A stretch of 64,000 bases of DNA from Octopus vulgaris. Its lineage: Eukaryota. The stretch lies in NCBI GenBank assembly GCA_951406725.2, contig OX597834.1:22382001-22446000 (forward strand), in the 5' to 3' direction. Below are positions 11,520 to 58,149 of this stretch, piece by piece (position 1 is the stretch's first letter; each line of letters starts with the position of its first letter). The position numbers were made by a program, and so were the translations under genes. The notes under the pieces are model-generated. The model worked only from the letters and a program-made list of their open reading frames with translations. It did no database searches and was not told where the DNA came from.

Positions 11520-11564
11520 GCAGAAGAAAACAAAAAATGGGAATGAAATCTCCTACACAGTCAG
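11520..11564 (+). CDS. Candidate 45-nt NAV cassette exon (xRRKQKMGMKSPTQS), phase 1-1
   Basis: ctttctctttgcttttcag acceptor, CAG|gtatag donor. Open in the phase required by exon 16590. Confidence 0.5.
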
Positions 11565-30500: not shown

Positions 30501-33500
30501 AAAGGTTTAAGTGATTTAAATTAAAACTTTCTATAAAAATTTATGCTAATTTATGTTAATTTATGCTCCAAACACCAACTTAGTAATGATAAAGTTATTT
30601 TACTAATTCTTTATTGTTTTCAAAATTAAATGGCACAAAGGTTGTATATTTCAGCAGAAATATGGTAACAAAAGAGTTAAAGAGTTCTAAATAAAACCTT
30701 CCATCAAAATTTCATGTTCCAAACATCAATTCAATAATGACAGTTATTTTACTGAATTCTTTGAAATTCCTATAAATTATTTCCAAATTATTGACCACTG
30801 TTCCATAGTTGTTTTTACAAATTCTTGTCCTTTTTATTTCTTTGCAGCCCTTACATAATAGGAACGATGAACCAAGCTACTGGACTAACCACCAACCTGC
30901 AACTACACCATAACTTCAGGTTAGTTTAGCACTTCCTTTATCTGTTGCGAAAATGCTTCGCCAAACGGTTAAGGTGTTGGGCTCACAATCATAATGTCAT
31001 GGGTTCCGGTTCCTGGACCAAACAGTGTTCTGTGTCTCCTTGCGCTGGACACTTCATCTCACATAGCACCAGTCTACTCAGATGTAACTAGGTGCCAGCC
31101 AAGTGTGGATGCAGTCCTCTCTCCCTCCTTCCAGCTCAGGGATCTTATATGTGTTCTTGGATACCTGCTGTGAAGCCCACGCTATTTGCTGGCTTCACAC
31201 CAGGGTTCTGGTCTGAGGATAACCTTGCTCCCACCAGGTTTATCAAAGCACCTGAGAGGTCCCATAGAAAATGCCCTTTCTCTCTGGCTAGACCATGAAA
31301 ATAAATAACAATTTAAGCAAGCACAAAACCTTTACTAAAATGCTTAGCTTTCAAGAAGACTCAGTTCAGGAATTGAACCCATGACTTTATGATCATGAAC
31401 CCAACACCCTAACCAGTAGGCCACGCATCTTCACAGAGGCACAGCCACTTGAGCAAGTATCTTCTGTTATAGTCCTGAGCCAATCAATGTCTATTGAGTT
31501 AAATTTGGATGGCGGAAACTGTGTGGAAGCCTATCATACATTTATGTATAAGTGTGTGTCCTTGTCTCCCGCCCCAATACTTCACAACCAGTGGTGGTTT
31601 GTTTATGTCCCTGTAAGCTGGTAATTCAACAAAAGAGTCTGACAAAATATGTACTTGAAACTGCTTTTTTTTTTTTTAATTGGAATCAGTTTGAGTAACC
31701 AAGCCATTTTAGGTGGTGCTCCAGCAAGACCCCAGTCCAAAAGAAAGAATTAAAAATTTCACCTAAGTCCACCTTGAATGTTTGGTATTTTTTTTGCTGT
31801 TGTTTTCCTTGATTTTTTTTTTTATTACTTATTTTTATTTCATTTTATTTATATATTTTTTTTAAACATTGCAGATGGGTTCTTTGTGCCAACCATATGG
31901 AACCAGTAAAGGGATTCCTTGGTCGTTACCTACGCCGCAAATTGGTAGAAGCCGAGGTACACATGGGTACCCGAAATAATGACCTAAACAAAATCATCGA
32001 TTGGATTCCCAAAGTATGGCAGCATCTTAATAAATTCTTAGAGACCCACAGTTCTTCAGATGTCACCATTGGTAAGAAACTACACATGCATTACATAATA
32101 AACTGGGTCTTTTTTTGTTGTTGTTGTTATTGGCTGATAAACAACACATGTATACATTTGTGACCCTTTCTGACCTCTGCTGCTGAAGAGGAAATAACGA
32201 CTCTGAAATGCATGCATGTAACAGTCTGGTTTTTTTGTCAACATTTGTCTATTTATTAGTGAAGTCTCATATAAAATAATTTTTGGTTTTAATTTTGGAA
32301 TTAAATGGTTTTGATTTTTCTGTCATGTAGGTAAACTTTGGCCAACCCTGTGTGTGTGTATGTATATATATATATACACACACACACACATATTGTAATC
32401 TAACATTTTTCAACATATTTCTATTGTAGGCCCCAGGTTGTTCTTATGCTGTCCAATGGACATCTCAGGATCCCAAGCATGGTTCACAGATTTATGGAAT
32501 TATTCCATTGTTCCTTACCTATTAGAAGCTGTTAAAGGAGGTTTACAGGTAATTCTTGATCTTTTAAAACATTTCTAAATTAACAGCCTGCTGTTGCTGT
32601 TATTATTATTAATAGTAATAATAATAATAATGTATGATAATTCCATTTCTTGTTATCTTGTGTACTAAATTTGTATTTAGTCCATAGTTGGAAATCAGTG
32701 GTAAGATACCTTCAAATCAAAAGGTTTTATATTTAAAAAATGCATACACACACATATGTATATATAAATGTGTGTGAACGTAGTTACATATATACTTACA
32801 CATACATATACACATACATGCATATATAGATATATAGACACATATATGTATTTATAGATTCACACAGACAGATAATATGTGTGGCTGTGTGATTAAGAAG
32901 TGCTTCCTGATTGGTGTGCTTTTGGGGCCCCACTGTGTGAATAGTGGCACCTTAGCCAGATGTCTTCTATTACAACCCTGGTAGACTTGTGCCTGCCTTG
33001 AGAAGAAATTTGGTGGAGGGAAACTGTGCGAAAACGTATATATACGAGAGTGAGTCAAAAAGTAATGCCATTTTATTTAGGACAGGTATAATTACCAACA
33101 CAGGAACGTGTATCATACATCAAAATGGAGCTGGTCGTCTGTGGATCACATCCCTACTTCTCAACATTGTCACCGTTTCTCTCAATAGCAATGTTCCACC
33201 TTCGAATGAGAGCATGTATCCCTACCCTGTAAAATTCTAGTGACTGTTCTTTGAGCCACTTCTTCACTACAACTTCTTCTTTTGAAGACTCATAACAGGT
33301 GATGAAAAATGGAATGGCACCACTCTATGCCACCACCACCGAAAAAGTTCAAAATGCAAAAGTTAGCTGGAAAAATCATGGTGACTGTCTTTTGGAGTGC
33401 TCAAGGTGTCATTCTGGTCGATTTCTTGCCAAAAGGAAAAACAATGAATTCAATAAGCTTCAGTTTAATGTATGATACATGTTCCTGTGTTGGTAATTAT

Positions 33501-34726
33501 ACCTATCCTAAACAAAATGGCATTACTTTTTGACTCACCCTCGTATATATATATATATATATATATACATATGCAATTGGCTTATTGTATATAGTGGTCA
33601 GATGCAGTACAACTCATCAGAAAATAGTAAAAGAGGGGACAGAAAGCAGCAATACGTCAGGTGAAGGAAGCCAACAGTGATAACCAAAAGTACATTCTTG
33701 GAAGACAGGATTAAACACAAGAATAGAGGAAAGTGAACGGTCGAACAGTAAAAGTAGACCATTCTGCTAGAGGCACATCATCATCATCGTTTAGTGTCTG
33801 CTTTCCATGCTAGCATGGGTTGGACGGTTCAGCTGGGGTCTGGAAGTCAGAAGGCTGCACCAGGCCCAGTCTGATCTGGCAATGTTTCTACAGCTGGATG
33901 CCCTTCCTAACGCCAATCACTCCAGGAGTGTAGTGGGTGCTTTTTCGTGCCACCAGCACAGGTGCCAGACGAGGCTGGCAAATAGCCACGATTGGATGGT
34001 GCTTTTTACGTGCCACCGGCACAATGCCTGAAATTTGTGGGGAGGGGCCTGGTCAATTACATCAACCCCTGTTCTCAACTGGTACTTATTTTATTGACCC
34101 AAAAGAATGAGAGGCAAAGTCAACTGCAGTGGAATTTGAACTCAGAATGTAAAGACTGTGTTATATCGTCAGCAATGATATATGATGTGTGTGCATAACG
34201 ATATATCATAATAGGGAATATAGCCACATAACAATAAGCACAATAGCAATCCAATACTCCAATATAGAATTAATAATGATACTAATGCTCTCACACTTCA
34301 ACCACACAGTTTGACCTCTTCTGTCCACTAGTTCATCAATTTATAAGACTCATCCAGTCTACTGACACTTATGTGTGGGGGTATCAGTTCCCTCCACAAC
34401 ACACTGATGAAATGACACTAAGCTTTTTGTCTGGCTAATGATTCTACCAGCTCAAGTCCAAAGATTAATAATGTGATACACAGTGACTGTCAAGTTGAAT
34501 ACTTACCAAAAACATTTGGTTCAGAGGAAGGCACACAGCTTTGTCTGTCCTTCAGCCTGGACTGATTAAAGCTGAAGAACAAGCTGACACTCCCAGCTCA
34601 CTTCATGGTTGAGTGGTTTTGTGGTAGGAAAAGACATCCAGCTGGAAAAACAAATGCTCCAACAACTAACACCATTCTGCCTGTGAAATGGATGCAAGAG
34701 ACTGGCAACCAAAACAAACTGATAAA

Positions 34727-34761
<35 letters not shown>

Positions 34762-36677
34762 TAATAGTAGAGTACTTGTAGTAATGATAATAATGGTGAT
34801 AAGGATTTCTTGTTTCCTGTTAGGAAAAGGTGGGGTCTTATGGGTTTTTATCAGATATGTTTAAATATAGTTAGACTTGTAATATGAGGAACAATAAACT
34901 TTTGAAATTTAGAATAGAAATATGAATAATGTTCTTTTAAAACGCAATAAAATTCTCTTAGTCTGATTTTTAGTAAATATATTATGTGTGTGTGTGTGTA
35001 ATATCTGAAAACACTCACTGATAATTTAATTAACATGTAAATATGTGATTGATTAATTAATAATTTCAGTTGTTTATTAATGTTGTTTTTGTTTCATCTA
35101 AAAACAAAATTTTCAAAATGGCTCATTTGTTTTTGTTTATTGTTTTTAAAACCAAAAAAAAAAAAAAAAACGTTATTTTTTTTTTTTAATTACCAATTTG
35201 TCATCTAGTTTAATTAGTAGTTTAGTCTGTTTCCTTCACTAATTGTTTTCCCTTAAATCCCACCTGAAAAGCTAGATCGAACCCTTTCAAAACACCATCC
35301 TTGTGCAATTGATCCCTAGCATCTCTAGTAGCTTAGTCCTGTCTATTTTTTGTCTCCCGTTGTTGTGGCACATCCCCTACCCTTATAAAACTTCTTGTAC
35401 TCTTCTATCGTCATTGTATCTACCCTGCAGTGATTAGTTTGTTTTCGTTTTGTTTTTGTCACTTTTTCCTTAATTCCTGGACAGCTAAAAGCAATATTTA
35501 CTCACATAATTATTAGCATTATTCTTCTTCTTATCGTTATCATCATCATTTAAGGTGGTGAGCTGGCAGAATTGTTAAAACGCCGGGCAAAATCCTTTGC
35601 GTCATTTCATCCATCCTTACTTTCTGAGTTCAAATTCCGTCGAGGTCGACTTTGCCTTTCATCCTTTTAGGGTCGATAAATTAAGTTGCCAGTGAAACAC
35701 TGGGGTCAATGTAATTGACTAGTCGCCTCCCCTAAAATTCCAGGCCTTGTGACTTTAGTCGAAAGGATCATCATCATTTTTTTTTTTGGCAATGAGCTGG
35801 CAGAATTGTTAGCACATGGGAGAAAATGCCTAGTGGTATTTTGTCCATTTTTAGATTCTGAGTTCAAATTCTGCCAATGTTGACTTTACCTTTCTTCCTT
35901 TTATAGAAAGGATCATCATCACCATCACCATCATCATCATCATCATTATTATTATTATTATTATTGCAAGGCAGCGAGCTGGCAGAATTGTTAGCACACC
36001 AGGCAAAATTACTAATAACATTTTGTCTATTTTTACACACTGAGTTCAAATTCCGCTGAGGTTGACTTTGCATTTCATCCTCTCGGGAGCAATGTAATCA
36101 ACTTACCCACTCCACTGAACTTGCTAGCCTTGTGCCAAAATTTGAAAATATCATTATTATTATTATTATTATTATTACTGCTACTACTACTACTGCTTGC
36201 TTGACTCATTAGCAAGTCAGACAAAATGCTTTCTGGCCCTTCTTCCAGCTTTACATCCTGAGTTCAAATTCTACCAAAGTCGATTTTGCTTTTCATCCTT
36301 TTGGTGTTGATAAAATAAGTACACATTGAATGCTGGGGGTCAGTATAATCAACTAACCCTCAGCCCCCAAATTTCAGGTCTTGTGCCTATAGTGGAAGGA
36401 TTATTATTATTAGGGCAGTATTTCTTCTGGTCCTTGTGTAAGAAAAGCACTTAGCGTAGTTTTAGACAAGTGCCCCATGCGTACACACACAAAAGCAAAA
36501 GTCAGGATGGTGACAACTGGAATGCCTCTGATCATAAGTCTGCTCATCATGTGTATGTGTGTGTGTTAGCTATGGCATTTAAGGCCATTCTGGAGTTTTG
36601 CCCTGAAGGAAATTTTGTTGTCTATGAAAGGAAATCATGTGCTGATGTTTGAGACACACACACTCTCTCTCTCTCTC

Positions 36678-36767
<90 letters not shown>

Positions 36768-37944
36768 TCTCTCTCTCTCTCACACACACACATGCTCTTA
36801 AGCAGAGTAGCATGTTGTCTATACCAATTTTATGCAGATTCTATATCTGTTCCTAACATCTTAAACCCTCATCTTTCGGCTGACAGTAATCAACATAAAT
36901 TATATTTTATTTTTAGGGGCCTGAATTCCATCTTCCCCGCTATTTAATTAACATTCCCAATCCCTTATATCTTTCCCCGTCCCCTCACTCTTGTATGAAA
37001 AAAAAAAAACAGTCAAAAAAGAAATCTACCTCATAAAAACATTAATCAAAATAATTTAATTCCACTCAACATGCAATTAAAAAAAAAAAGTTACAAGGAA
37101 AGAAAGAAATGCTTGCTGCAATCAATAACTTGTTAGAGATTACTTATGAAATACCATCTTAATGAATGGTACTTCAAACTATTTAACCTGTACTCAGCTC
37201 TATTAATAACGACTTCTCCTCGTTTCCTCATTTTACCTTTGCGTCATTTCATTTAATCCCAGTTTGTACCTAAAATAAATTTCTTCGGCCTATGTGTGGC
37301 TGTTCATCATTAATGATCCGCTTAACACAACTTATGCTAACGAGAGATAGCAACAGACTGATGTGTGTGGGGGTGAGGTAGCAAGCTAGCAGAAGTGTTA
37401 GCACACCAGACAGACTATGTAGCAGCATTTCCTTTGTCTTTATGTTCTGGGTTCAAATCCCACCAAGGTCAACTTTGCCCTTCATCTTATGAGAGTCAAT
37501 AAAATAAATACCAGCCATGTACTGGGGTTGATGTAATTGACTCCCCACCATCAATTATATATACATTTGTGTATGCATATATATATATATGTGTGGTCGA
37601 AGCATCATCCAAACGTGGCTGATGCCAGCGCCGCCTTGAGTGACTTTTGTGTCGGTGGCATGTAAAAAGCACCAACCGATCGTGGCCACTGCCAGCCTCC
37701 CCTGGCACGTAAAAAGCACCCACTACACTCACGGAGTGGTTGGCGTTAGAAAGGGCATCCAGCTGTAGGAACACTGCCAGATCAGACCGGAGCCTGGTGC
37801 AGCCTCCTGGCTTTCCAGACCCTGGTCGAACCGTCCAACCCATGCTAGCACAGAAAACGGACGTTAAACAATGATGATGATGATATATATATGCATATAT
37901 ATATATATATATATGCATATATATATGCATATATATATATATAT

Positions 37945-37986
<42 letters not shown>

Positions 37987-38428
37987 GTACTGGTGGCACG
38001 TAAAAAGCACCCACCACACTCACGGTGTGGTTAGTGTTAGGAAGGGCATCCGGCTGTAGAAACCTTGCCAGATCAGATTGGGGCCTGGTGCGGCCTCCAG
38101 GTTTTCCAGTCCTCAGTCAAACCATCCAACCCATGCCGGCATGGAAAGCAGACGTTAAATGATTATGATGATGATGATGATATATACACACACACATACA
38201 TACATACATACATGTGTATGTGATTGCTAAATGGAGACTAAAAGCTCATTGTGTGTATATATGTATATGTGTGTGTGTAGGTATGATTGTGTGGACCAGG
38301 AGTTCATTTCTTAACCATGTGATTTCATGTTGAGTCCCATTGTGTGGCACCTTGGGCAAGTAACTTCTACACCCCTGGCCAATAAAAGCCTTTGCGAATG
38401 GGTTTGGTAGATGAAAACTGAAAGAAGT

Positions 38429-38471
<43 letters not shown>

Positions 38472-39154
38472 TTTCCAACCAAGGTCCATATGGCCCTTGG
38501 GGTCCACATAAGATTTTGTTATTTAAATTTATCTGCAATAAATTGGTTATACGTCTACAATACAAAAGAAAATTTAACAGTTTTTTTAAATACAATTTCT
38601 TATAATAATTATAAAAATATAATAGGGGTTTTTAAACAACAAATGGCTATTAGGGTCCACTCACATAAAGTAAAAATCAAAGGGGTCCAGAGGTAGGAAA
38701 TATTTGAGAACCACTGGGGGGTGTGAGTGTGTGTTTGTAGGTTTTTTTCTTGACATCACATGATAGTTGTAAATGATTGTCACCATCATACAAGCAGTGT
38801 TGTTCCTTTTCAATTTTTCCTGAAAGCATGTCTGCTCCTTGAGGAACTATTACCTTGCTTGGAAACAGGTGAGGGTTGATGACAGGAAGGGCACCAACAC
38901 TGTTTCCCTTTCCGCTCTTCATTTTTAATGAAGACATTACACCTGCAGATGGTTCTTCCAGTTGTGTACTCCTCCACACCTCCAATCTCACCTGCCTGGG
39001 AGGGTCTGCAAAAATCCTAGATAAGACCCTTTCTCTTGACTAATTCATTTAAAAATAACATCCCATATCATAATTACATAGGTGTGTATGTGTGCGTGTG
39101 TATATATATATATATATGTGTATGTGTGTATATATATATGTATATATATATATG

Positions 39155-39201
<47 letters not shown>

Positions 39202-42200
39202 GTATATATAACTTTTTACAAAAATAAATATGATACTCTTCTTAAAGGTGTTGAATAATCCTTCAATTAATATTTGAGTACTTTGTGTGTGTGTGTGAGA
39301 GTGATTAATATGTGCATATGTAATTAATTAAGCCTCTTCAGCTATCTCAACTTTCTCAATTCCCTTCATGCCTTCCCACCATAAAAAAATACTTTTTTCT
39401 TTATTTATTATATATATATTAAGTAAAATAAAATTACTTCTATAAATAGCATATTAAAAACTACAAAGTAAATTTTATCTCAATTAATCAATTAATTAAC
39501 TAATTTCTATAACTCCATCGTGTTATGAAGGTGCCTGGGCTTAGTGGTTAAGATGTTGAGCTCACCAGCGGCTTGTTGTGGGTTCAATTCCTAGGCTGGA
39601 TGGCGATGTTGTGTCCTTGAGCAAGGCATTTCATTTCACATTGCTTTTGTTTGTTCAGCTGAAGATAAATACCAGTGCTACGCTGGAGATAACTCGGCAA
39701 CAAGCTTATATCCCATTTGGGGAGCGGCAGTGAGGGCTCTTGTTCTGTCTGTCTTCTAATTACATTAGAAATGCAGATGAACTCCAAGTTCATGGGCCCT
39801 AACTCTTTAGCATTTAAACTGGCCACATCAAGGCTAAACATCCTTCTGGTTTTATGTCCAAACTGACCATATCGAGCCTCTCACACCCACCCTACAATGT
39901 CATTCTAGAAATAAATAATGGCATCATCAAAATCTCAAAGCCACAAGATAATGCATGATTAATTCAAAACAGTGGTTAGAGCATCGGGATCATGATCATG
40001 AGGTAGTGAGTTCGATTCCTGGACTGGGCTGTGTGTTGTGTTCTTGAACAAGATACTTTATTTCACATTGCTCCAATTCACTCATCTGTAGAAATGAGCT
40101 GTGACATCACTGGTGGCAAGCTGTACCAGCCCCTTTGCCTTTCCCTTCAATAACATCGGTTGGCATGGAGACAGGGTGGCCAGTATGCATGGGCAACTAC
40201 TGGTCTTTCATAAACGACCTTGTTCGGACTTGTGCCTTGGAGAGGGACTTTCTAGATGCAATCTCACGGTGAGTCATGACCAAGGGGCGAGTCTTTACAT
40301 TTGACAGAATAATCCGAATGCTGAAGGGTTAAAGGTATGAGGCAAGCTTTTGTAGACGTTTGTCTGTCAAGTTATACTCTCATTACTCTTTTACTTGTTT
40401 CAGTCATTTGACTGCGGCCATGCTGGAGCACCGCCTTTAGTCGAGCAAATCGACCCAGGGACTTATTCTTTGTAAGCCCAGTACTTATTCTATTGGTCTC
40501 TTTTGCTGAACCGCTAAGTGACGGGGACGTAAACACACCAGCATCGGTTGTCAAGCAATGCTAGGGGGACAAACACAGACACACAAACACACACATACAT
40601 ATATATATATATACATACATATATACGACAGGCTTCTTTCAGTTTCTGTCTACCAAATCCACTCACAAGGCATTGGTCAGCACGGGGCTATAGCAGAAGA
40701 CACTTTCCCAAGATGCCACGCAGTGGGACTGAACCCGGAACCATGTGGTTGGTTAGCAAGCTACTTACCACACAGCCACTCCTGCACCTTATGTTAATTT
40801 TCTGATATGTTGATTAATAATTTATCTTAATTTGTCAGAAGATAAAAATATATTTTATAATTATTTTTTCCTTCAGTTTTTTTCTTATTGTCTTAGAAAG
40901 ACAACACAAACACAAAAATCAGCTTTTAATGCTCGTCTTTCATACTTTGGTTAGTCTGACAGGATTCAATAAATTGGCGGACTGCATTGTGCTCCAGTGT
41001 CTGTTTTATTGTGGTTGCCATGGTTGGATGCCTTTTGCTAATGCAAACCACTTTACAGAGTGTACTGGGTGCTTTTTACGTAGCACCAGCACTAGAGAGG
41101 TTACCATGTAGCTCACAAGACTAAGATTTCCTTTGATGGAACAAGTCTACAGTAGACAGGGAGACAGCTTTATGCCAGGGTGATAAAAGGTTAAGAAAAA
41201 ATGAAAGAAGGGAACAGAACAAACAAACATTCCATAGTGTTTATGATTGGGATTTTATAGCATTTAGGGCAACATTTATGGTGTTTAACTCTTTCATTAC
41301 TGTATTTATTTTGAGATGCTCAGTGTTTCTTTCAATTAATTTTAAATATTATAAAGAATTTAGTAAAATAACTTAGTTATCATCCAGCTAGTGTTAAGAA
41401 CATAAATTGAGACTGTTTGGTAGAAGATTTTAATTTAAACCTTATGAAAACAAGACATTTGTACAACAGAGCCAGAGCCGGTTTCAGCCGGGTTGGTAAC
41501 GAAAGGGTTAAGGCAAGCATTTAATAGTGTTTATGGGTGATACCTGATAATGTTTAGGGCTGTTATTTCATTGGGTTTAGCTCTTGTTATGTAGTGTTTA
41601 GAGTTATTTGTTCATGTTTTTTACTGTTTTCTTTTAATTGTGTTTAAGGCAAATATTTGGTCATGTTCAATGCTATCATTTCATAGTTTTTTTAAATATT
41701 ATCATTTGATAGTGTTTAGATCTTATTTGATGAAGTATATAAGGTGGCAAGCTGGTGAAATCATTAGCACATCAGGCAAAATGTTCTGTGGCATTTCTTC
41801 TAAGTCTACATTCTAAATTCAAATTTTGCTGAGGTCAGCTTTTGCCATTCATCTTTCCAGTGTTGTTAAAATAGAGCACCCTTTGAGCATTGGAGCCAGT
41901 GTAAGTGACTCGACCATATCATTCCCCTTAAAAATTTGTAGCCTTGTGCCAAAGTATGAAAACATGCCGGATAAAATGCTTAGCAGTATTTCTTCCAGAT
42001 TTACGTTTCAAGTTCAAATTCCACCAAGATCAACATTACCTTTCATCTGTTCTAAGTTCAAATTTTGCCAAGGTTGGCTTTGCCTTTCATCCTTTTGGGG
42101 GTCAATAAAATAAGTAACAGTTAAACTCTGGAATCATTGTATTCAAATAGCCCCTCTTCCCCCAAATTTCAGGCCCTGTGCCCCTATAATGGGAAGAATT

Positions 42201-45200
42201 ATTCGAGCTGGCAGAATCATTAGCAAGCCAGGCAAAATGCTTGGCGGCATTTCATCCGACTTTACATTCTGAGTTCAAATGCCGCCAAGGTACACTTTGC
42301 TTTTCATCCTTTTGGGGTCAATAGATTAAGTACCTGTGAAACACAGGGGTCGACATAATCGACCAGTCCCCTTCCCCCAAATTTCCTGCCTTGTGCCTAT
42401 AGTAGGAAGGATTATTATTATTATTATTATTATTATTATTGTGATAAGCTGGCAGAATCATTAGCACATTGGACAAAATCCTCAGCAGCATTTCCTCTGA
42501 CTCTTTACATTCTGAGTTCAAATCCCATCAAGGTTGACTTTGCCTTTCATCCTTTTGTGGTTGATGAAATAAAGTACCAGTTGAACACTACTGGGGTCAT
42601 GTAATCGACTTAACCTTCCCCCCCCCCTAAAACCTGCTGGCCTTGGGCCAAAACTTTGAACCCATTATTTGATAGTGCTTAGGGCTGTCGTATTTGCTAG
42701 TGTAGAGACGTTATTGTTATTTGCCTATATTATTGAAATGATTGAAAATATTGCTTCCAACTGCCTCCTGTTTTTTCTCCCAGTCACGTAAACTGAATGA
42801 CAATGAGGTAAGTAAACAGACTACAGCATGTCTTCTGTGAAGTTCTTTAGTCACTGGTACTTTATAAGCACTACCCACCCCCCCTATTTTTTTTTCTCCA
42901 GCATATTTGATTTACAGTTATGTTGTTTTTGTTTTTTTTTATATATATATATATATATATATACAGTTTATATTGAAGAATCACTTCCTCAGGTATAAAA
43001 AAAAATAAGAATAAACAGTTGAGCGGCCCGTGGGTCTAGGATGGTGACCCATTGAGTAAGGACAGTGTGTCCTTGAGCAAAGTTCATCGCTTTGATTCCA
43101 TTGGTCAACCTGGTGCTCTGCCAAGTGGCTGGTAGGAAGAAGGATGTTCACCCTTTGAAATGTCTTTAGGAATTTGACAATCCAATGCTACAACGTAGAT
43201 TCACAGAACCAACTTGCAAATATTCCTATATATACATACATATAGTTAAATATACACACACACACATCATGTACCTTTAAAATATATTTATTTGTAGGGA
43301 CATCATTGAGGACCAGTTTGATATAATTTCTATCATAAACATCAGAATAATAATAATAATAATAATAATAAAAGAACCTTGAAATAGAGGTCTTAGAAAT
43401 GGGCATCTAAGAATAACAAGTGCACCTCTGACCATGGTGGCTTTGAGTATAATACCAAATGGCACTCTTAAATCCAATGCTCAAATACCAGGAAACCCAA
43501 AGTATCAGAACTACAAAAATTGTTCTTATTTGGTGCAGCCCATATCTTAAGAAAAGCACTTGTCAACCTGAGATTATTTGATTCGTTTAAAACTTTTTCA
43601 AAATCACAAATTGTACAACAAACTTTTAACATAATCTTAATTGTCAGTATTTGGTCTCCTTTCCTTGAAATATATCCATTGCTAATCAGAAATAACAGCC
43701 ACGGTGAAACATGCAATTTGCTGTTACTTGAGGTCTCTGTATGAAGACTTGAAGCATCTTGTATAAAACAGTGCAACAACAATTAATCTAATAATAATAA
43801 TAATAATAATAAAATAATAATAATCAACATAGGAAGGTGGCGTACTGACAGAATTGTTAGTATGCCATCCATTTTCAGGTTCTAAGTTCAAATCTTGCCA
43901 CGGTTGGCTTTGCCTTTCATCCTTTCGGGGGGTCAATAAAATAAGTACCAGTTGTGTACTGGGGTCATTGTAATCAACTCACCCACTCCCTTGAAAATAG
44001 TGGCCTTGTACCAAATTTGAAACCAATAATAACAACCATCATCATCCTCTTAAATCATCATCATCTTCATTCTCACAAAATGCATCTCCTTCAGATATAT
44101 GTAAATATGAAGGTGGAGGGGTGGGCAGTTGACCATTAGTTAATTGTCCTTTCATAAATTGCATTCAATTCCCCCCTGCCACTTGTCCAAGCCTGTGGGT
44201 TACCAGTGATCTAGATGCTGTTTATGAATATGTACCTCATCACCACTTATATTACTCTCTGGATCCATCCCTGCCTTCCCCTACTCTCCCTTCTAAAATG
44301 TGAGTAATGTTGCTCCTCTACTACAAGAAACCTTTCCTGCTCTGGCCCTTTTATCTCATACTTAACCCCTCTCTGTTCCTTATTCTCGAGGCTGTAAAGT
44401 GCTCCTCCCCCAATACACACTCAGGGGTCTTAGACTTGCAACCTCAACAGTGCTGTTGGCATGAAAAAGTACCCAGTACATACTGTAAAGTGGTTGGTGT
44501 TAGGAAGAGTAGTAACCATGGAAACCATGCCAGACACTTGAGCATGATGCAGTCCTTGGGCTCCATCAGATCCTGTTAAACTGTCCGACCCCGAGGCAGC
44601 ATGGGACATGGACTTCTAAATGGTGATGATGGTAATGACAGATGTATACAGCTTCCTTACAATTTTAACCCAAATTTCTAGAAATCCCTCCACTATTTCT
44701 CTAAAACAGCTACTTTGACCCTCAGATGTTTAATGCAATATTCACTACTGTGGGTTTCTGTATCTGAAGCATAGTTGTTAACTGGACAAAGCTACACCAG
44801 TCTGGGCTGTTGTTTCATTTCTTCTCTCTCCCTCTGCAAGTTCTACCTTGAGCTGTTCCCCAAAAACACCATTAACTGTCTACAGTCATTCTTGATTTGA
44901 CCTTCACACATACACACGTGCGTAATCACATTAAACGAAAACAAACCAACACACATCGCTTATGTTATCAGTGCATCTCAGCTTCAAAATAAACGCTTAT
45001 GGGGTATTTACTGCTTGGCTTCACACAACATTGTCACTGAGTGTATGTGCTGCTAAGAATACTAAGTAACCACTCCTTGTCAGTGATTGCTGTACTCTGA
45101 TTAATGATCATTGTACTCTAGCTAATGATCATTCTGATCACTGTGACCGACCAGGCTATCAGATGTTGCTACACATCGCTGGTCACAATGCGCTTCGCAT

Positions 45201-46664
45201 TGTTTTAGCCTTCAAATGTCGCCACCCCGCCGGAGCCTCGTGGAGCTTAAGGTGTTTTCACTCAATAAACACTCACAACTCCCAGTCTGGGAATCGAAAC
45301 CGCGAGTCCGCTGCCCTAACCTCTGGGCCATTGCACCTCCACATGATCATTGTACTCTAGCTAATTGTTAATGTATCCTAGCAAATGATCCCTGTATCCA
45401 AGCTAATGACCCTTGTACCCTAACTATGGATCACTATAGTCTAGCTAATGCACAACTGCTTCTTGTTTTGTGACAGCTTCTTCAGTGGTCAAAAGTGAAT
45501 TGCAGAACTTTCTCACACACTTCCATCTCTGAAAAGCAATTCTCTCCTTCCCCCATATCCCCACACCATCTAAGAATATCCCCCAGTTAGTAAGCAATCA
45601 ATTTACTCATTAACGAAATTATTCTAACAGTAAATCGGTGACGGGAAAGCCCAAATTGATTCGAAGCATATCACCATTATTATTACCATCATCATCATCA
45701 TCATCATCATCTTATTAAGGCAGCAGGCTGGCAGAATCATTAGCATGTTGGGTGAAATGCCTAGTGGTATTTCATTTGCCACTACGTTCTGAGTTCAAAT
45801 TCTGCCGAGGTCAACTTTACCTTTCATCCTTTCGGGATTGATTAAATAAGTACCAGTTGAATACTGGGGTTGAGGTAATTGACTAGACCCATCCCCGAAA
45901 ACATATGGCCCTGTGCCTTTAGTAGAAAGCATTATTATTATTATCATTCTCTGCATGTTTTCCTCTCATTGTTGTCACATGTTGTCTCTTCCTCTTCCTC
46001 CTCCGCCACCTGCATGTCCTTCTTCGATGTTGTCTTAGTTTCCGCCACAGTCGTTGTGTTTGTGACGTGTCGTGATGTTCATTTCTGTCGTCGTCAGTTC
46101 CGAGATCCAAAATCAACGAAACGTTCGCTCCTCTTGTATCGTGTCCGTCTCGTACCTCTTGTTGTCATCGCGTTGTCATCGTTGTCGTTGCATTTACTCA
46201 TGTATAGATGTCGCTGTTTGTACACTGTGCACATTTGCACCGTAATATAATTCGGTCTGTGAGCAATTGGCAAAATTTCTTTAGAATTTCATTCTTCACT
46301 TTCACATGCTTCATACACTAGCATTCAAACAAAAGAAATTTAGCTCCTTTAATTTGCACATCTAATTAAAAAAAAAGAAAGAAAAGAAAAGAATTTATCT
46401 TCGTTAACCCTTCTACTGCAGAAACCTCATATACATCCATTCAAAATTTCATTAACTTTTAACTACAGAGATCAGTTTTATGTAACCAATTTATCTTTTG
46501 TAGACGCAGGAGTGGCTGTGTGGTAAGTAGCTTGCTAACCAACCACATGGTTCCGGGTTAAGTCCCACTGCGTGGCATCTTGGGCAAGTATCTTCTGCTA
46601 TAGCCCCGGGCTGACCAATGCCTTGTGAGTGGATTTGGTAGACGGAAACTGAAAGAAGCCTGTC

Positions 46665-46724
<60 letters not shown>

Positions 46725-47721
46725 CTGTTTTTGTCCCCCTAGCATTGCTTGACAACCGATGCTGGTGTGTTTATGTCCCCGTCACTTAGCGGTTCGGCAA
46801 AAGAGACCGATAGAATAAGTACTGGGCTTACAAAGAATAAGTCCCGGTGTCGATTTGCTCGACTAAAGTCGGTGCTCCAGTATGGCCGCAGTCAAATGAC
46901 TGAAACAAGTAAAAGAGTAAAGGAGAATGTCATTTTTGAAGCAATTTCTTGTTGAGATATGTCGAGTTTATAGAAGCAGAAAATACCAATTCTATTTTCT
47001 GGTAGATATTTAAAACCATTATTGGAATAATTGTGAAATTTCACAGTTAAAAGATAAAAACACACCAAGAAGGGAGTCTGTGTATGGTTGCTTGAGCTGC
47101 TAGAAATAGCAGCCACATGACACCTTACCATCATTATAAAGGAAGCACATGCTGGAAAACATGAATATATGATGAAGGATACGTTGTTTGAAAGTAAGGT
47201 GGATGGTCATGGTGGGAATATTTTCGTAGGTTTGCTTGATCAGCATTTACCTGGGATTAAACAACATGCAGATGCAGGCTTGGATGTATGGCTGGGAATC
47301 TTTGTCTTGTAACGAACATGGTTTTGGGACAAGTCCCATTGCATGGCACCTGGGCAAGTGTCTTCTGTTATAGCTCCAGGCTGACCAATGTCTGATGAGT
47401 GGCTTTGGTTGAGAGAAACTGCATGGAAGCTCATAATGTACACACATGCATGTGAGTGTGTGTATGTGTGTATGTATGTATATATATATGGTACATATAT
47501 ATATATGGTACATATATATATATGGTACATATATATATATATGGTACACATGTATGTATATATATATATGGTACATTCACGGAGTGGTTGGCGTTAGGAA
47601 GGGCATCCAGCTGTAGAAATACTGCCAGATCAGACTGGGCCTGGCGCAGCCTTCTGGCTTCCCAGACCCCAGTTGAACCGTCCAACCCATGCTAGCATGG
47701 AAAACGGACGTTAAACGATGA

Positions 47722-47766
<45 letters not shown>

Positions 47767-48452
47767 CACACACACACACTGTTTCTTGACAACCAGTGTT
47801 GGTTTGTTTACATCATCATAACTTAGAATTTCAGCATTAGAGACCAATAGAATAAATACTAGACTTAGAACTAGTTACTAGGGTCAATTTGTTTGACTAA
47901 AACCCTTCAAGCTAGTGCCCCAGCATGGTCAACAAATAAAAGATAACTGAACAGTGCACAGGGTGATTCAGTGTCCCTTTAGCATTTAAACGATAAATAG
48001 TTTTAAAATAGAGAAGGGACTTCTGACTCAGCCTGTATTTTCAGTAAGTAATTCAAAGGTTTTTTTGTCCCCTCTACAAAATCTAGAATTTTCCAGTGAC
48101 TACTCCTGAGTGTTTTTACTAGGAATGCTTGGGACGTAGAGTACTCTGTCTGAAGAGGATACTCTGTTTTTGTTGCTTGAAAGATGAAGTATAGAGAAAC
48201 GCTCTGAGGTGTGGCAGAGATAATTTTCAGCATTGAATCACTGGTCATACTTCACCACATGTATTGAGTTCCATTCTTCCATATTTATGCATGCATGCAT
48301 GTGTAATGCTATAGGTAGGTAGATAGATAGATAGATAGATAGTAATAATATATATTTACATAACAAGACTAAATATTTGTTCATCAAATATAAATATTGG
48401 TGTGTATACACACACATACATATGCTCACACACAAATCAACTGGTAACTTGT

Positions 48453-48501
<49 letters not shown>

Positions 48502-49215
48502 CATCATCATCATCGTTTAATATATATATATATATCCATACATGTTTCTGTGTATATATTCACACATACATAGACACAAACTCACAAATGTACACAGACA
48601 TAAATCAAATGATAAATTGTTGCACACACACATACATATACACACACATGGACACAACGGATATTTGAGGATGATTTTTTTTTTCTCTTTTCTTAATCAA
48701 CAAAAAGTCCGCATAAACTCATAATTTAATTTTATTTCTGTTTGTTCTAGAAAATTATATAATACATGTATATACATACATACATATATACACATACATG
48801 TATGTGTGTGCACGTGCGTGTGAATATGGATTGATTGATTGACTGATTTTTTTTTAGTCTATTAAGGTTACTTGTACACTTCACCTATGGCACACACACA
48901 CACACACACACACACAATGTCCATCCTCCACTCTCAAAATATATTTTCGATATGATTGGTTTCTCCAATACTTAATAACAACCTTCTTCAACCCAAAATT
49001 GCTTTGTTTTGTTGAGGTTTGTTTTTTCATATTTATGTTACATTGTCCTCCATACCAATCTCATTTATCAATTCTGTCTCAATTTATTTAATTGAATAAT
49101 TTCGTGTATTTCTACTAAATGCAATATAAAACATTTACGCCTGTCTTAATTCTGATACGGCTTATCTTTCAAATATTATACAAATCATAAGGGATCTTTT
49201 TCTTCATTATTATTA

Positions 49216-49259
<44 letters not shown>

Positions 49260-50831
49260 GTCGTCATCATCATCGTATTAAGGCAGCAAGTTGGCAGAAT
49301 CATTAGCATGTTGGGTGAAATGCCTAGTGGTATTTCATTTGCCACTATGTTCTGAGTTCAAATTCTGCCGAGGTCAACTTTACCTTTCATCCTTTCGGGA
49401 TTGATTAAATAAGTACCAGTTGAGTACTGGGGTTGAGGTAACTGACTAGACCCATCCCCAAAAGCATATGGCCCTGTGCCTTTAGTAGAAAGCATTATTA
49501 TTATTATTATTATTAAGGTGATGAACTGGCAGAATCAGTAGCTCACCAGGTGAAATGCTTAGTGGTATTTTGTCTGTCTTCACACTCTGAGTTCAAATTC
49601 CGCCAAGGTCAGCTTTGCCTGTGATCCTTAAAATAATTCCCAGTTGAACACTGGAGTCAGTGTAGTTGATTTAGCCCCTCCCCTGCAATTGCTGGCCTTG
49701 AGCCAAAATTTGAAATTATTATTATTATTAGTAGTAGTAGTAGTAGTAGTAGTATTATGGTGGATGGTAGAATTTGTGAAAAGAGCAAAACCGAAAAAAG
49801 ACTTTGTGGTATATCAACACAAAGGGTCCTTTGGGGAAGAAAAAAAAAATCAAGAGATTATTGTACCACTGTCCATGTTTTTTAAATCATAAACTTCATT
49901 GGTGGGGTGGGGTTAATATAAAATGCATTTCTTTATCATCATCGTCATCATTTTAACGTCCACATTTCCATGCTTGCATGGGTCAGGTGGAGTTTATTCA
50001 AGCAGACATTCTATGGCTAAATGTCCTTCTTGACACCAACCCTAACCTGTTTCCAAGCAAAGTAAGGCTTCCACATGGCTGGACATGTTTTTGCAGAATA
50101 TTAGAAATTAATGACACTGCTTGTATAACAGTGACACTCATTTACAACTATCATGTGATGTCAAACACAAACATAGATTCACACTCAACCCACACATATA
50201 TATGTACAGCAGGCTTCTTTTAAGTTTCCATCTACTAAATCTACTCGCAAGGCTTTGGTTGACCTGAGGCTATAGTAGAAGACACTTGCCCAAGGTGCCA
50301 CACAGTGAGACTGAACCCGGAACTATGTGGTTGGGAAGCAGATTTCTTACCCACACAACTATGTCTGCCCCTCTTAAAAACATAAAATTAATGGTGAGTT
50401 TTAATTAGAATATAAATATTTGTTAAATAGGTGATACGATTTCACAGAATCAGGGATAATCAGAAACCGGTTGAAATGGAAAGATTTTTAATAATCAGAA
50501 CATTTTTGTTAATTACTCATTAACCTCAGACATTGACGTCATCCTTATAAATCTGTCCTGTTTGCCAGGAAGCTTATCATTTATCCTCTTCTTTCTTTTT
50601 CTCGTTTCTTCTATTATCTAGCTCTACGGTAGAAGGGCACCATGGGAAGACCCCGCAGAATGGGTGAATGAAACTTACCCATGGAATACTTCAGGTAATC
50701 ATGATGCGCCATCTTTGCAACGTCTGCGACCAGAAGATGTTGGCTATGACACTCAACCAGCGCCCCCCGACTCACCGAAATCAAAGTCTGAAAATAATAC
50801 AACCAATGACGGAATAGAGAGTGATGCTTTG
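16590..50831 (+). CDS. NAV2: Neuron navigator (NAV2/unc-53/sickie family) gene, partial: ten spliced exons encoding the C-terminal region and AAA+ ATPase domain
   Basis: Joined exons translate in one frame to ...[11 protein letters not shown]...[17 protein letters not shown]...IDPITNLGL...[11 protein letters not shown]...[28 protein letters not shown]...[17 protein letters not shown]...VIILDNLHH...[10 protein letters not shown]...[31 protein letters not shown]...[16 protein letters not shown]...[18 protein letters not shown]...[14 protein letters not shown]...LRPEDVG. This matches NAV1-3/UNC-53 as I recall them. Assignment to NAV2 specifically is nominal. Confidence 0.97.
16723..18110 (+). 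repeat. Tandem array of about 4.3 units (about 315-350 bp) of MITE family 2 plus a roughly 100-bp spacer
   Basis: TTAACCCTTT restarts at 16723, 17072, 17386, 17713 and 18032. Units 3 and 4 are near-identical. Confidence 0.85.
18165..18515 (+). repeat. Compound (CAT)n repeat with recurrent gccataca/atacatttt interruptions
   Basis: Visible directly. Source of the poly-H/S/I ORFs. Confidence 0.9.
20078..20167 (+). CDS. NAV2: NAV exon, phase 0-0: [30 protein letters not shown]
   Basis: Poly-T then ttgcag acceptor, donor AAG|gtaagg, 90 nt. Conserved [12 protein letters not shown] motif. Confidence 0.95.
21446..21539 (+). CDS. NAV2: NAV exon, phase 0-1: [31 protein letters not shown]
   Basis: Acceptor tttttgcacag, donor AAG|gtaatt, 94 nt. 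Conserved EY..DP..LGL...Y.IGEI.R. Confidence 0.95.
21909..22305 (+). repeat. 26-bp minisatellite, about 15 copies (cacactaaaagcacccatgccagtac)
   Basis: Direct head-to-tail periodicity of 26 with no unique spacers. Confidence 0.95.
26045..26119 (+). CDS. NAV2: NAV exon, phase 1-1: (D)[24 protein letters not shown]
   Basis: Acceptor ttttctgtttcag, donor AAG|gtaaac, 75 nt. Conserved PELLP.GYLVG. Confidence 0.95.
26387..27271 (-). mobile_element. Decayed maT/DD37D Tc1-mariner transposon
   Basis: Minus-strand translation [65 protein letters not shown]...[18 protein letters not shown]. 37 residues between the 2nd and 3rd Asp. TA-CAGGG terminus at 27271 and a degenerate TIR near 26390-26409. Confidence 0.85.
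27551..27722 (+). CDS. NAV2: NAV exon with Walker A (GPSGTGKT), phase 1-2
   Basis: Acceptor cttttactttcag, donor AAG|gtaaga, 172 nt. [56 protein letters not shown]. Confidence 0.97.
28108..28327. mobile_element. piggyBac-type MITE family 1 copy
   Basis: TTAA|CCCTTCAGCATTCAAACCGGCC...CACTAAAGGG|TTAA. Confidence 0.85.
28867..29082 (+). CDS. NAV2: NAV exon with Walker B (VIILDN), phase 2-2
   Basis: Acceptor tttttcttttag, donor GTG|gtgagt, 216 nt. [34 protein letters not shown]...[27 protein letters not shown]. Confidence 0.97.
29899..30070 (-). mobile_element. CR1-type LINE 3' fragment
   Basis: Minus strand [30 protein letters not shown], then a short 3' UTR ending in (TAAC)n. Confidence 0.75.
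30848..30919 (+). CDS. NAV2: NAV exon, phase 2-2: (C)[23 protein letters not shown](R)
   Basis: Acceptor atttctttgcag, donor CAG|gttagt, 72 nt. Sensor-1-like GTMN. Confidence 0.97.
31875..32071 (+). CDS. NAV2: NAV exon, phase 2-1: [23 protein letters not shown]...HSSSDVTI
   Basis: Acceptor aacattgcag, donor TTG|gtaaga, 197 nt. Confidence 0.97.
32430..32548 (+). CDS. NAV2: NAV exon, phase 1-0: (G)[39 protein letters not shown]
   Basis: Acceptor tttctattgtag, donor CAG|gtaatt, 119 nt. Confidence 0.97.
33045..33543. mobile_element. Mariner-derived non-autonomous element, about 86-bp TIRs, TA target site
   Basis: TA-CGAGAGTGAGTCAAAAAGTAATGCC...GGCATTACTTTTTGACTCACCCTCG-TA. Plus-strand fragments ITGDEKW and [39 protein letters not shown]. 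Minus-strand fragment [36 protein letters not shown]. Confidence 0.92.
35550..36410 (+). mobile_element. Head-to-tail cluster of SINE family B (gagctggcagaa...gagttcaaattc...ttgcctttcatcc, (ATT)n tail)
   Basis: Four to five consecutive copies. Other clusters at 1472-1960, 13445-13810, 41740-42665, 49280-49730 and 60875-61490. Singles at 16315, 19530, 37375, 43830 and 45715. Confidence 0.85.
36663..36790 (+). repeat. Long (CT)n microsatellite; another at 2755-2810
   Basis: Visible directly. Confidence 0.95.
37595..38180 (+). mobile_element. Two copies of SINE-like family C (ggcacgtaaaaagcacc...gttggcgttaggaagggcatccagc...ggacgttaaac(GAT)n)
   Basis: Same family at 25424-25730 (-), 33777-34022 (-), 47575-47725 (+), 58855-59157 (+) and 63824-64000 (+). 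Confidence 0.8.
38466..38716. mobile_element. hAT (Charlie-like) MITE inside a SINE
   Basis: Right end TTGAGAACCACTG (reverse complement CAGTGGTTCTCAA), degenerate left end gtgttttccaacc, internal ggggtcca motifs. Confidence 0.55.
40384..40789 (-). mobile_element. Full-length tRNA-headed SINE family A (internal microsatellite)
   Basis: Near-identical to 46503-46921 (+). Other copies at about 3263-3700 (+), 3722-3905 (-), 21615-21908 (-), 47285-47940 (+, interrupted), 50205-50370 (-), 60124-60460 (+). Confidence 0.85.
41289..41507. mobile_element. piggyBac-type MITE family 2, opposite orientation to the 16.7-18.1 kb array units
   Basis: TTAA|CTCTTTCATTAC...GTAACGAAAGGG|TTAA. Internal similarity to 16727-16940. 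Confidence 0.75.
42784..42807 (+). CDS. Candidate 24-nt NAV microexon (SRKLNDNE), phase 0-0
   Basis: ttgcttccaactgcctcctgttttttctcccag|TCACGTAAACTGAATGACAATGAG|gtaagt. Stop-free and frame-preserving in a phase-0 intron. Confidence 0.7.
43372..43790 (+). mobile_element. 5'-truncated R4/Dong-clade non-LTR retrotransposon 3' end within (TAA)n
   Basis: Frameshifted [10 protein letters not shown] / [21 protein letters not shown]...QIPGNP / [18 protein letters not shown], typical of the RLE-domain C-terminus. (TAA)n on both sides. Confidence 0.75.
46503..46921 (+). mobile_element. Full-length SINE family A
   Basis: tRNA-like head ggagtggctgtgtggtaag...ggttccgggttaagtccc, CORE-like cttgggcaag, (TA)n, tail atgactgaaacaagtaaaagag. 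Confidence 0.85.
50622..50831 (+). CDS. NAV2: NAV exon, phase 0-0: [21 protein letters not shown]...[12 protein letters not shown]...ESDAL
   Basis: Long pyrimidine tract plus ctag acceptor, donor TTG|gttggt, 210 nt. Follows an 18,073-nt intron. Confidence 0.95.
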
Positions 50832-55205: not shown

Positions 55206-58149
55206 AAAACAAAATTATTTTCTACTTAAATAATTAAATATTCGCAAATTATGTTGTTTAGTAAATGATACAATTTGTAAACATCTAATTATTAAAGGGA
55301 AAAATATTTACCAGAAAAGTCATTTTATTCATTTCTTTCAAATATTACACACACACACACATACATATAACAAAACAAGAAGTCGAGAAATTTTTTAGTA
55401 TTCTTTATTCACCATTTCACATGTTTCATTTCCTAATAGGGATTCCAAGGTTTTACTTGGATTTTACCCTACCTACCTATATATATATATATATATACAT
55501 ACACACACACATTTCCTCTCTCGCTTTTTTTCCTGCTAACAATTTTACCTATGTTGGCCCAGATTAGGCAGTCCTTTTATCAAAAACATCCAAATTGTGA
55601 CCATCCCACCTTATTTTTTGGTGGTGGGTTATCTTTCTAACACTATATCATATATGTGTCTCTCTCTCTCTCTCTCTCTTTCTCCATGTGCCATGTCTAC
55701 CAGCATCGGCAATCTTGGACTTGTATGCCAAAGTTTAAAGATTCAAGATTTTTCATGGAAAAGATACAGCAGTGATTTTCCATTGCCTTTTGCTAGTTTA
55801 CAGTTTATTCTGCTTGTCCCCTGCTCTCCTAAGCTTACCTTTGAGACACAGAGCCTATTAAACTCTTAGCTAGAATTGGTTCATGTGAAAGCAGGGCATG
55901 TTCACACAAACTGGATGGCCTGAGTCACACTAATGATACCATAAGAATAGTAGTGAACACCCAGAGTTGTGTGCAGAGGCAGGATGCTTGTGTAGGGTTA
56001 GCCGTGAATGGTCGATGTAACATTGAGGTTATGGTCTATGAAGCAGCAGTAGTGTTGTCAAAAACAGCAACAACAAAGAAGGGACACACGAAAATGTGTT
56101 GGAGCAACACAGAGCCCTTTTAAAGCTAGGCTAAATAATCATGAGTACTCTTTGAGAATCTAAGAGACACAATGTTACAACATTAGCCACGTATATATGG
56201 TGGGTAAAAGAGGAAAGTACACCATACAAAATTGACTGGTAACTGCTTGAACAACCTGGGCCATAGTTGAACAGGTGTTGCAAGTTTTGCTTGGTCTAAG
56301 GGAGAAAAATTCTAAGAATTTCACCCAATGGAAGTACTTTCTTAAACTCAAAAATCAAAGTATTTAGTTGCTGCCTTCATAATAAAAAATTAATTCACAT
56401 AATACCATGGGAGGCAACTCTTCTTTTTCTTCCAAGAAAATGCTTTCAGTTTCCATCTGTGAAATCCACTCAAAAAGGCTTTGGTCAGCCTGAGACTATG
56501 CTAGAAGACACTTGCCCAAGGTGCCATGCAATGGGACTGAAATCAGAACCATGTAGTTGGGAAACAAATTGCTAACCACCCAACCATGCTTGCACTGATT
56601 GTATATATTTCCTAGCTGCTTTGTTAATCATTTGCTTCACAACCCTGAAATTAAAACAAAAGAGGGATTAAAATTTTACTTCCATCTCCTACATTTCCCA
56701 AGGGATCACACATCTAAGTTCCAACTCGGTTCAACATTGCTTAACATTAGTGATCAGACGAGAGCCCATGTTTTCAACGTGATATGACTGTAACCCCGAT
56801 TGATTGACCAAATGATTTATCAAACGGATGAGTTAATTAATTGGTTAAATGGTTAATTAGTTCATTAATAATTACAAATCTTTTTTTTCAATTGCTGTCT
56901 TACATCCAGAATCAGTTTAAATTCATGAAAATTGTCTTTGTCAAGGTGGTCCAAATTTGGTTTTTATTCTAGAGGAACACATACACACATGCTGGTTATA
57001 TGAAATTTCACCATAACCATTTTTGCCATCGGAAAATTCACCTTAAGAAATTCCATTTTAAATGACCTCACCACATTTTTTTTTTAATGTTTGACATTAA
57101 ATAAAGGCTTTTTATAAAACATTTTATAATTTTTTTTTTTTAATTCTAAAATAAGCTTATATAATATGTTTTATCATTATCCATATAGCAAATTTTCCTA
57201 TACAGTGAAATTTCTTACACTGAATTTTCCAGACACAACACATATTCACATACACATATCTTTATATATATATTATTATATATTTTGATGACTGTTTGTT
57301 TTTAATTAATCGTATACTAATCATATACTGTCTCCCATCGTACAGGAAATGAATCAATATTTAAGCTGGAAGGCAGGTCCAAACCAATGTTTGACGTCGA
57401 ACATAAATATTTGCTGAAATTCCCCCCTTATCCATGAAATCATGTAAGTTTTAACCATTGACCCCACAACCTCCTTTCTCTCCTCCCCCTGTCTCTTCCT
57501 CATGTCTTCTCGTACATACTCTTCTCCCCTCTTCCATCACAGTTCTCTTCATATTTCCTCCTATTTATATATACACATTTATTTATGTATGTGTGTGTAT
57601 GTATATATATATATATATTTATACACACATTACATATATACAAGCATACATATTGTATTTACTTGTGTATAAGTCACAGTATTTTACTATTTTAAACTTG
57701 ATTTTAACTGAAAATTCAGGGTTCAACTTATACATGAGTAAATACGTGTGTGTATGTATCTATATATATGTGTGTATATATATATATATATGTGTGTGTG
57801 TGCGTGTGTATATATATATATATTTAACTACCTTGCTTGGCAACAGGTGGGGGTTGGCGTCAGGAAGGGCATCCGGCCGTAGAAAACTTGCCACACACAT
57901 AGCACTGCGTATATGTGCATATATATGTATATATACACACACACACATACATGCCTCTTTCTACCTTCTCAAAATAATGACCTCTGTTCCAATCATATTT
58001 TTATTTAAATTTAATTATTCATTATAATTTATTTCAATTGTGACGTTAATTAATCAGTTCTTTCTGTTCGTTATTTTAAATGTGTTTATTTCTTATTTAT
58101 TTTGCTAATTCTACTCAACTTCTTTTTGAACCTTTTCTCTTACTATTGC

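Follow-up and report, generated by a model that had tools for sequence, protein, structure and literature searches.

A coleoid-conserved cassette microexon in the AAA+ lid region of the octopus Neuron Navigator gene

Introduction

Vertebrates and flies have well-described microexon programmes; cephalopods built their large brains independently. The microexons controlled by SRRM3/4 are characterized in 10.1101/2024.09.17.613571 and 10.1101/2021.02.24.432780 by UGC motifs near the 3′ splice site and a strong 5′ splice site, and the former work reports that UGC is missing from about one quarter of the SRRM3/4 targets and is not strictly needed. For the eMIC exons of flies, the latter work describes weak 5′ splice sites and short introns. 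The Navigator family is represented among the exons catalogued in table S2 of PMC8797185, which lists a 27-nt exon of fly sick (DmeEX0009502) as eMICdep and a 24-nt exon of mouse Nav1 (MmuEX0030948) as Neural. The Navigators themselves are placed in the McrB family by a 2023 review (PMC9877351), in which their nucleotide use and oligomeric state figure as unresolved.

Here, we describe a 24-nt exon of the octopus Neuron Navigator gene that encodes SRKLNDNE and is a coleoid-conserved cassette microexon, already annotated automatically in the RefSeq/GenBank models of three species. Our literature search found no paper on this exon (the supplements of 10.64898/2026.09.05.749416, on tissue splicing in Octopus bimaculoides, lay outside that search and may list it), none centered on cephalopod microexons as opposed to general papers, and none joining neuron navigator, AAA and microexon. 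What goes beyond the existing models is that the exon is conserved across coleoids and absent from the other animals compared, that a nemertean has a parallel insert at the identical junction, and that the 8 residues fall within the AAA+ lid.

The Navigator Gene in the Window

The window, a 64,000-nt stretch of the Octopus vulgaris genome, contains 13 mapped exons of the octopus Neuron Navigator (NAV2/sickie), with further exons of the gene lying on both sides. The exons in the window match the O. sinensis NAV2-like isoform X1, and the exon downstream of the microexon is 100% identical to neuron navigator 2 of O. bimaculoides. A domain search resolves Navigator proteins into a ubiquitin-like domain (PF23092) followed by the AAA domain and then its lid (PF25408). 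The top Foldseek matches of the predicted fold are McrB AAA+ rings (E 2e-7), the best solved matches being McrB hexamers, and a search of the PDB by sequence gave one weak match, to PCH-2 (E 0.006), confined to the Walker A region. The features of the locus are as follows:

27551-27723, + strand: exon encoding GPSGTGKT, the Walker A motif of the Navigator AAA+ domain
32430-32548, + strand: upstream constitutive exon, lid domain, C-terminal ...GGLQ, donor GTAATT, phase 0
42708-42783, + strand: 3′ splice-site region of the microexon, with a 74-nt AG-free zone, TGC starting at 42752 (-32) and 42762 (-22), a pyrimidine tract (18/20) and CAG
42784-42807, + strand: 24-nt phase-0 cassette microexon, SRKLNDNE (from the window sequence and public proteins)
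42808-42813, + strand: donor GTAAGT after GAG, matching the consensus
42826-42830, + strand: GCATG at +19 of the microexon, a possible Rbfox-type element (expected by chance in about 7% of 50-nt stretches of this intron)
50622-50831, + strand: downstream constitutive exon, starting LYGRR after TAG, phase 0, end of the lid domain

Other variable exons occur in the same gene. A second microexon lies upstream of the window (L006:3259-3279, on G000:C21); it is 21 nt long, encodes WPHHLPM in phase 0, has the donor GTACCG and no TGC within 60 nt upstream, and is found in Octopus and in proteins of the Sepia cluster, being missing from Sepia protein P0124. The coiled-coil junction at which it is inserted carries other inserts in oysters, abalones and scallops and looks like a hotspot. 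Directly before the ubiquitin-like domain lies a 45-nt phase-1 cassette exon (GRRKQKMGMKSPTQS; 11520-11564, + strand), present in 16 proteins and missing from 3, conserved in Sepia and Argonauta, basic, and with an SP site. There are also two alternative last exons, a proximal one at 57346-57417 (EMNQYLSW...), whose tail is conserved in one protein of the Sepia cluster, and a distal one at L011:3505-3657 (TNKLTKFQ...); both Octopus tails are without the LxxMLMRLQEAA segment of the Navigators of other animals.

The Microexon and Its Splice Sites

The microexon lies in an intron of 18,073 nt (32548 to 50622). As originally predicted, a pyrimidine tract, CAG, 24 stop-free nucleotides in phase 0 that keep the reading frame, and the GAG/GTAAGT donor can all be read in the sequence, the two TGC motifs are present upstream of the acceptor, and the junctions 32548^42784 and 42807^50622 are right, the span then given (42750-42813) covering the flanks of the exon as well. 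The donor motif AGGTAAGT occurs in the 18-kb intron only here, and at the search sensitivity used, the genome has no second copy of the stretch around the microexon. No clear branch point was found upstream of it. Farther downstream, at about 42915-42940, there is a U/GU-rich tract, a kind of sequence common in this intron, which we take to be a possible ELAV-type element.

Both Isoforms in Public Gene Models

Independently of any motif, public proteins that contain the insert confirm that the microexon is real. In O. bimaculoides, XP_052831526.1 (X1, 395 aa) and XP_014785384.2 (X2, 387 aa) differ solely by these 8 residues, and SRKLNDNE is likewise present in XP_052831527.1 (X3). It occurs in A0A0L8G0B3 as well. 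In the cuttlefish Sepia pharaonis, one of three models (CAE1311282.1) has the identical 8 residues, and CAE1311285.1 and CAE1311283.1 are without them. The exon is thus annotated in both included and skipped form in O. bimaculoides and S. pharaonis, as befits a cassette. It is left out of the single O. vulgaris model, of that of Argonauta, and of all four Logan-assembled Sepia-cluster proteins. Altogether, the junction is spanned by 22 cephalopod proteins, 13 with the microexon and 9 without it, counts that are of gene models rather than reads and hence no measure of inclusion level. Gene models of this sort are usually built on RNA-seq. The downstream exon was found in 20 of the 24 sequencing runs listed; none of these 20 is recorded as RNA, and the runs carry no tissue labels. 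The exon had been presented as hidden in its intron; the RefSeq and GenBank models that already carry SRKLNDNE contradict this, while the same models bear out its expected conservation, with 8/8 residues shared by other Octopus species and Sepia.

Regulation of the Microexon

By its motifs and by analogy with known systems, we consider it probable that the microexon is under neural, eMIC-type control. It is 24 nt long (within the range of 3-27), keeps the frame, is annotated as a cassette, and has upstream UGC motifs and a consensus donor, and the genome contains an exon for the regulator domain: a partial match to SRRM_C (PF15230; positions 13-55 of 67) scoring 32.6 bits against a cut-off of 27. 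The exon in question (L002, G000:C25:37317492-37317626) encodes the initial portion of an SRRM_C/eMIC-like domain and is likely the eMIC segment of an octopus Srrm234. Under such control, skipping would be the default, 24 nt being too little for ordinary exon definition, and in neurons Srrm234 eMIC acting at the UGC/pyrimidine region, together with the strong donor, would switch the microexon on.

The same evidence leaves a possible, though not a probable, alternative: a real conserved cassette microexon that is not neuron-specific or not driven by eMIC, being instead broadly included, used in muscle or another tissue, or subject to Rbfox-, PTB- or Nova-type control. All nine of the O. sinensis RefSeq isoforms that reach the junction, among the 15 of 20 cluster members listed, include the microexon, which would also fit broad inclusion. 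The GCATG at +19 may be of the Rbfox type, a motif also common in the host intron. Further, the upstream signals discriminate poorly. The intron has 22 YAG sites with a pyrimidine tract; of these, 9 have at least one TGC between -40 and -4 and 3, including the microexon, have at least two, so that UGC motifs separate it weakly from other intron sites; within the gene, it is alone among the 13 acceptors in the window in having TGC between -40 and -16. The AG-free zone was discarded as evidence, its 74 nt falling within the 17-134 nt range of the gene's 12 other acceptors. The 21-nt microexon, which is not preceded by any TGC within 60 nt, indicates that the small exons of the Navigator gene need not follow the eMIC code. 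Against this alternative stand the size of at most 27 nt, the two UGCs just upstream of the tract, the consensus donor, the SRRM_C domain in the genome, and the neural or eMIC-dependent small exons of the mouse and fly orthologues.

Distribution and Origin

To trace the insert across animals, we fetched 532 proteins, of which 394 had both junction anchors and 138 lacking one anchor were left out. The 394 comprise 22 cephalopod and 372 other Navigator proteins; the set is vertebrate-heavy, with many isoforms of chiton, abalone, oysters, scallops, mussels, Lingula, annelids, arthropods and vertebrates, and none named as Nautilus. SRKLNDNE occurs in none of the 372 non-cephalopod Navigator proteins with both anchors. 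The junction is contiguous in 360 of them, vertebrate NAVs included, as the original prediction had it; the remaining 12 are from the nemertean Lineus longissimus and have VRN. A homologue search centered on the insert scored 13 candidates, of which 11 were matches, and returned no further insert-bearing protein. Since the insert is present in Octopus and Sepia and in 0/372 of the others, we posit that the microexon likely originated on the coleoid line, prior to the split of octopods and decapodiforms. Octopods and cuttlefish separated about 270 million years ago.

Gains of small exons have recurred in the Navigator genes of other animals. At the identical junction, the Navigator of L. longissimus has an optional insert, present in 12 isoforms and missing from 3 (P0156, P0160 and P0317-P0329), which consists of three unrelated residues as against the eight of cephalopods. 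As valine can start with GT, VRN, seen at the protein level alone, may reflect an alternative donor instead of a microexon.

Predicted Effect on the AAA+ Lid

The insert constitutes residues 268-275 of the included form (X1/X3 numbering), inside the lid (PF25408, 188-303) and about 220 residues after Walker A. In the structure model of the skipped form, the junction lies in the last turn of a helix (239-269), after which come a loop of 8 residues and a helix at 278-284; in that of the included form the helix spans 239-271, the loop has 14 residues, and the following helix is kept. Mean pLDDT is 81.1 for the skipped and 81.9 for the included form, with the block 271-280 of the latter dropping to 61. 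Thus, the insert is predicted to extend the end of the long helix and to lengthen the next loop with the fold intact: the helix ...GLQLY would continue into SRKL, and NDNE with the displaced LY would join the loop before the WEDP helix. The prediction that the end of the AAA+ module is remodelled is refined by this, the insert being within the AAA+ lid and the models favoring a longer surface loop over remodelling.

A few residues past the cephalopod insert, the downstream loop is 8 residues longer in nine proteins, the named ones being hymenopteran. Such extra residues lie between YGRR and WEDP in the hymenopteran Sickie proteins P0394, P0395, P0523, P0524 and P0526. Since this loop accepts inserts elsewhere, the effect of the cephalopod insert may be mild; together with the helix and loop models, the variation in loop length suggests that it is likely a tolerated surface change. 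In a further, rather unlikely reading, the microexon is neural but its 8 residues hardly change how the protein works: the loop tolerates them, and their conservation comes chiefly from the constraint of splicing signals on the 24 nt. Both models indeed fold alike with the insert as a low-confidence loop, the adjacent loop varies in other lineages, and the 8/8 identity between Octopus and Sepia is unsurprising beside flanking exons that are identical at 36/39 and 53/70 positions (92% and 76%). Yet the insert is in frame on both sides of the octopod-cuttlefish split and breaks a junction contiguous in 360/372 non-cephalopod proteins. In the reading that we favor, the fold is predicted to be kept, and the insert likely tunes a contact surface of the lid, with a neighboring subunit in a McrB-like ring or with a partner protein, instead of acting on the catalytic motifs.

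Chance Occurrence of the Motif Combination

We defined candidates as YAG followed by 3-51 nt in frame and GTAAGT or GTRAG, with a pyrimidine tract of at least 13/17. Within the 18,073-nt intron, the microexon (42784-42807) alone answers to this definition; read in antisense, the intron has no candidate of up to 27 nt with either donor. Shuffled versions of the intron (approximate dinucleotide shuffles) gave a like motif with GTAAGT in 6/200, with GTRAG in 25/200, and with a tract of at least 15/17 in 0/200, figures that understate chance because the shuffle breaks up pyrimidine tracts. Another in-intron site, at 46743, was rejected for its weak GTGTTT donor and the want of TGC. Although the shuffles yield a similar motif in 3-12% and the O. 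vulgaris and Argonauta models and the four Logan-assembled Sepia-cluster proteins all skip the exon, a chance pseudo-exon or annotation artefact is largely refuted and highly improbable, the identical 8 residues being found, with accessions of their own, in gene models from three species that represent two superorders.

Intron Length

In this half of the gene, the introns that result from skipping the three cassette exons of 21, 45 and 24 nt measure about 36, 23 and 18 kb, as compared to about 0.4-4.5 kb for the mapped constitutive Navigator introns; the distances to the two alternative last exons downstream are 6.5 and about 17 kb. The suggestion that the microexon explains the length of its intron survives only as an association between cassette exons and long introns; long introns may equally favor the birth of an exon or its skipping.

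Significance

The microexon programmes of cephalopods now have in SRKLNDNE a concrete, conserved test case. The ordinary kind of element that it represents and its existing automatic annotation limit the surprise. Since it lies inside an AAA+ domain whose nucleotide use and oligomeric state are, according to PMC9877351, still to be settled, the pair of isoforms with and without the 8 residues is a ready-made natural variant. The farthest-reaching proposal, which we regard as doubtful, is that a coleoid-specific, neuron-only microexon rebuilds a contact surface of the AAA+ lid, giving the neurons of octopus, squid and cuttlefish an altered Navigator ring assembly or partner binding. If true, it would provide a natural on/off variant with which to probe Navigator AAA+ function and a first case in which an eMIC programme of cephalopods is worked through.

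Comparison with Known Systems

The octopus protein has in common with the Neuron Navigator/UNC-53/Sickie family the succession of PF23092, AAA and PF25408. Within that family, the fly sick exon DmeEX0009502 and the mouse Nav1 exon MmuEX0030948 likely occupy other positions than the octopus microexon, since the fetched insect and vertebrate proteins are contiguous at its junction. From the fly eMIC class the octopus exon differs by its long flanking introns and strong donor, the latter being shared with the SRRM3/4 microexons of mammals. With the vertebrate SRRM3/4 and the non-vertebrate Srrm234-eMIC microexons at large, it shares a length of at most 27 nt, an in-frame cassette organization, UGC between the branch region and the AG, and the insertion of a few residues into a conserved domain.
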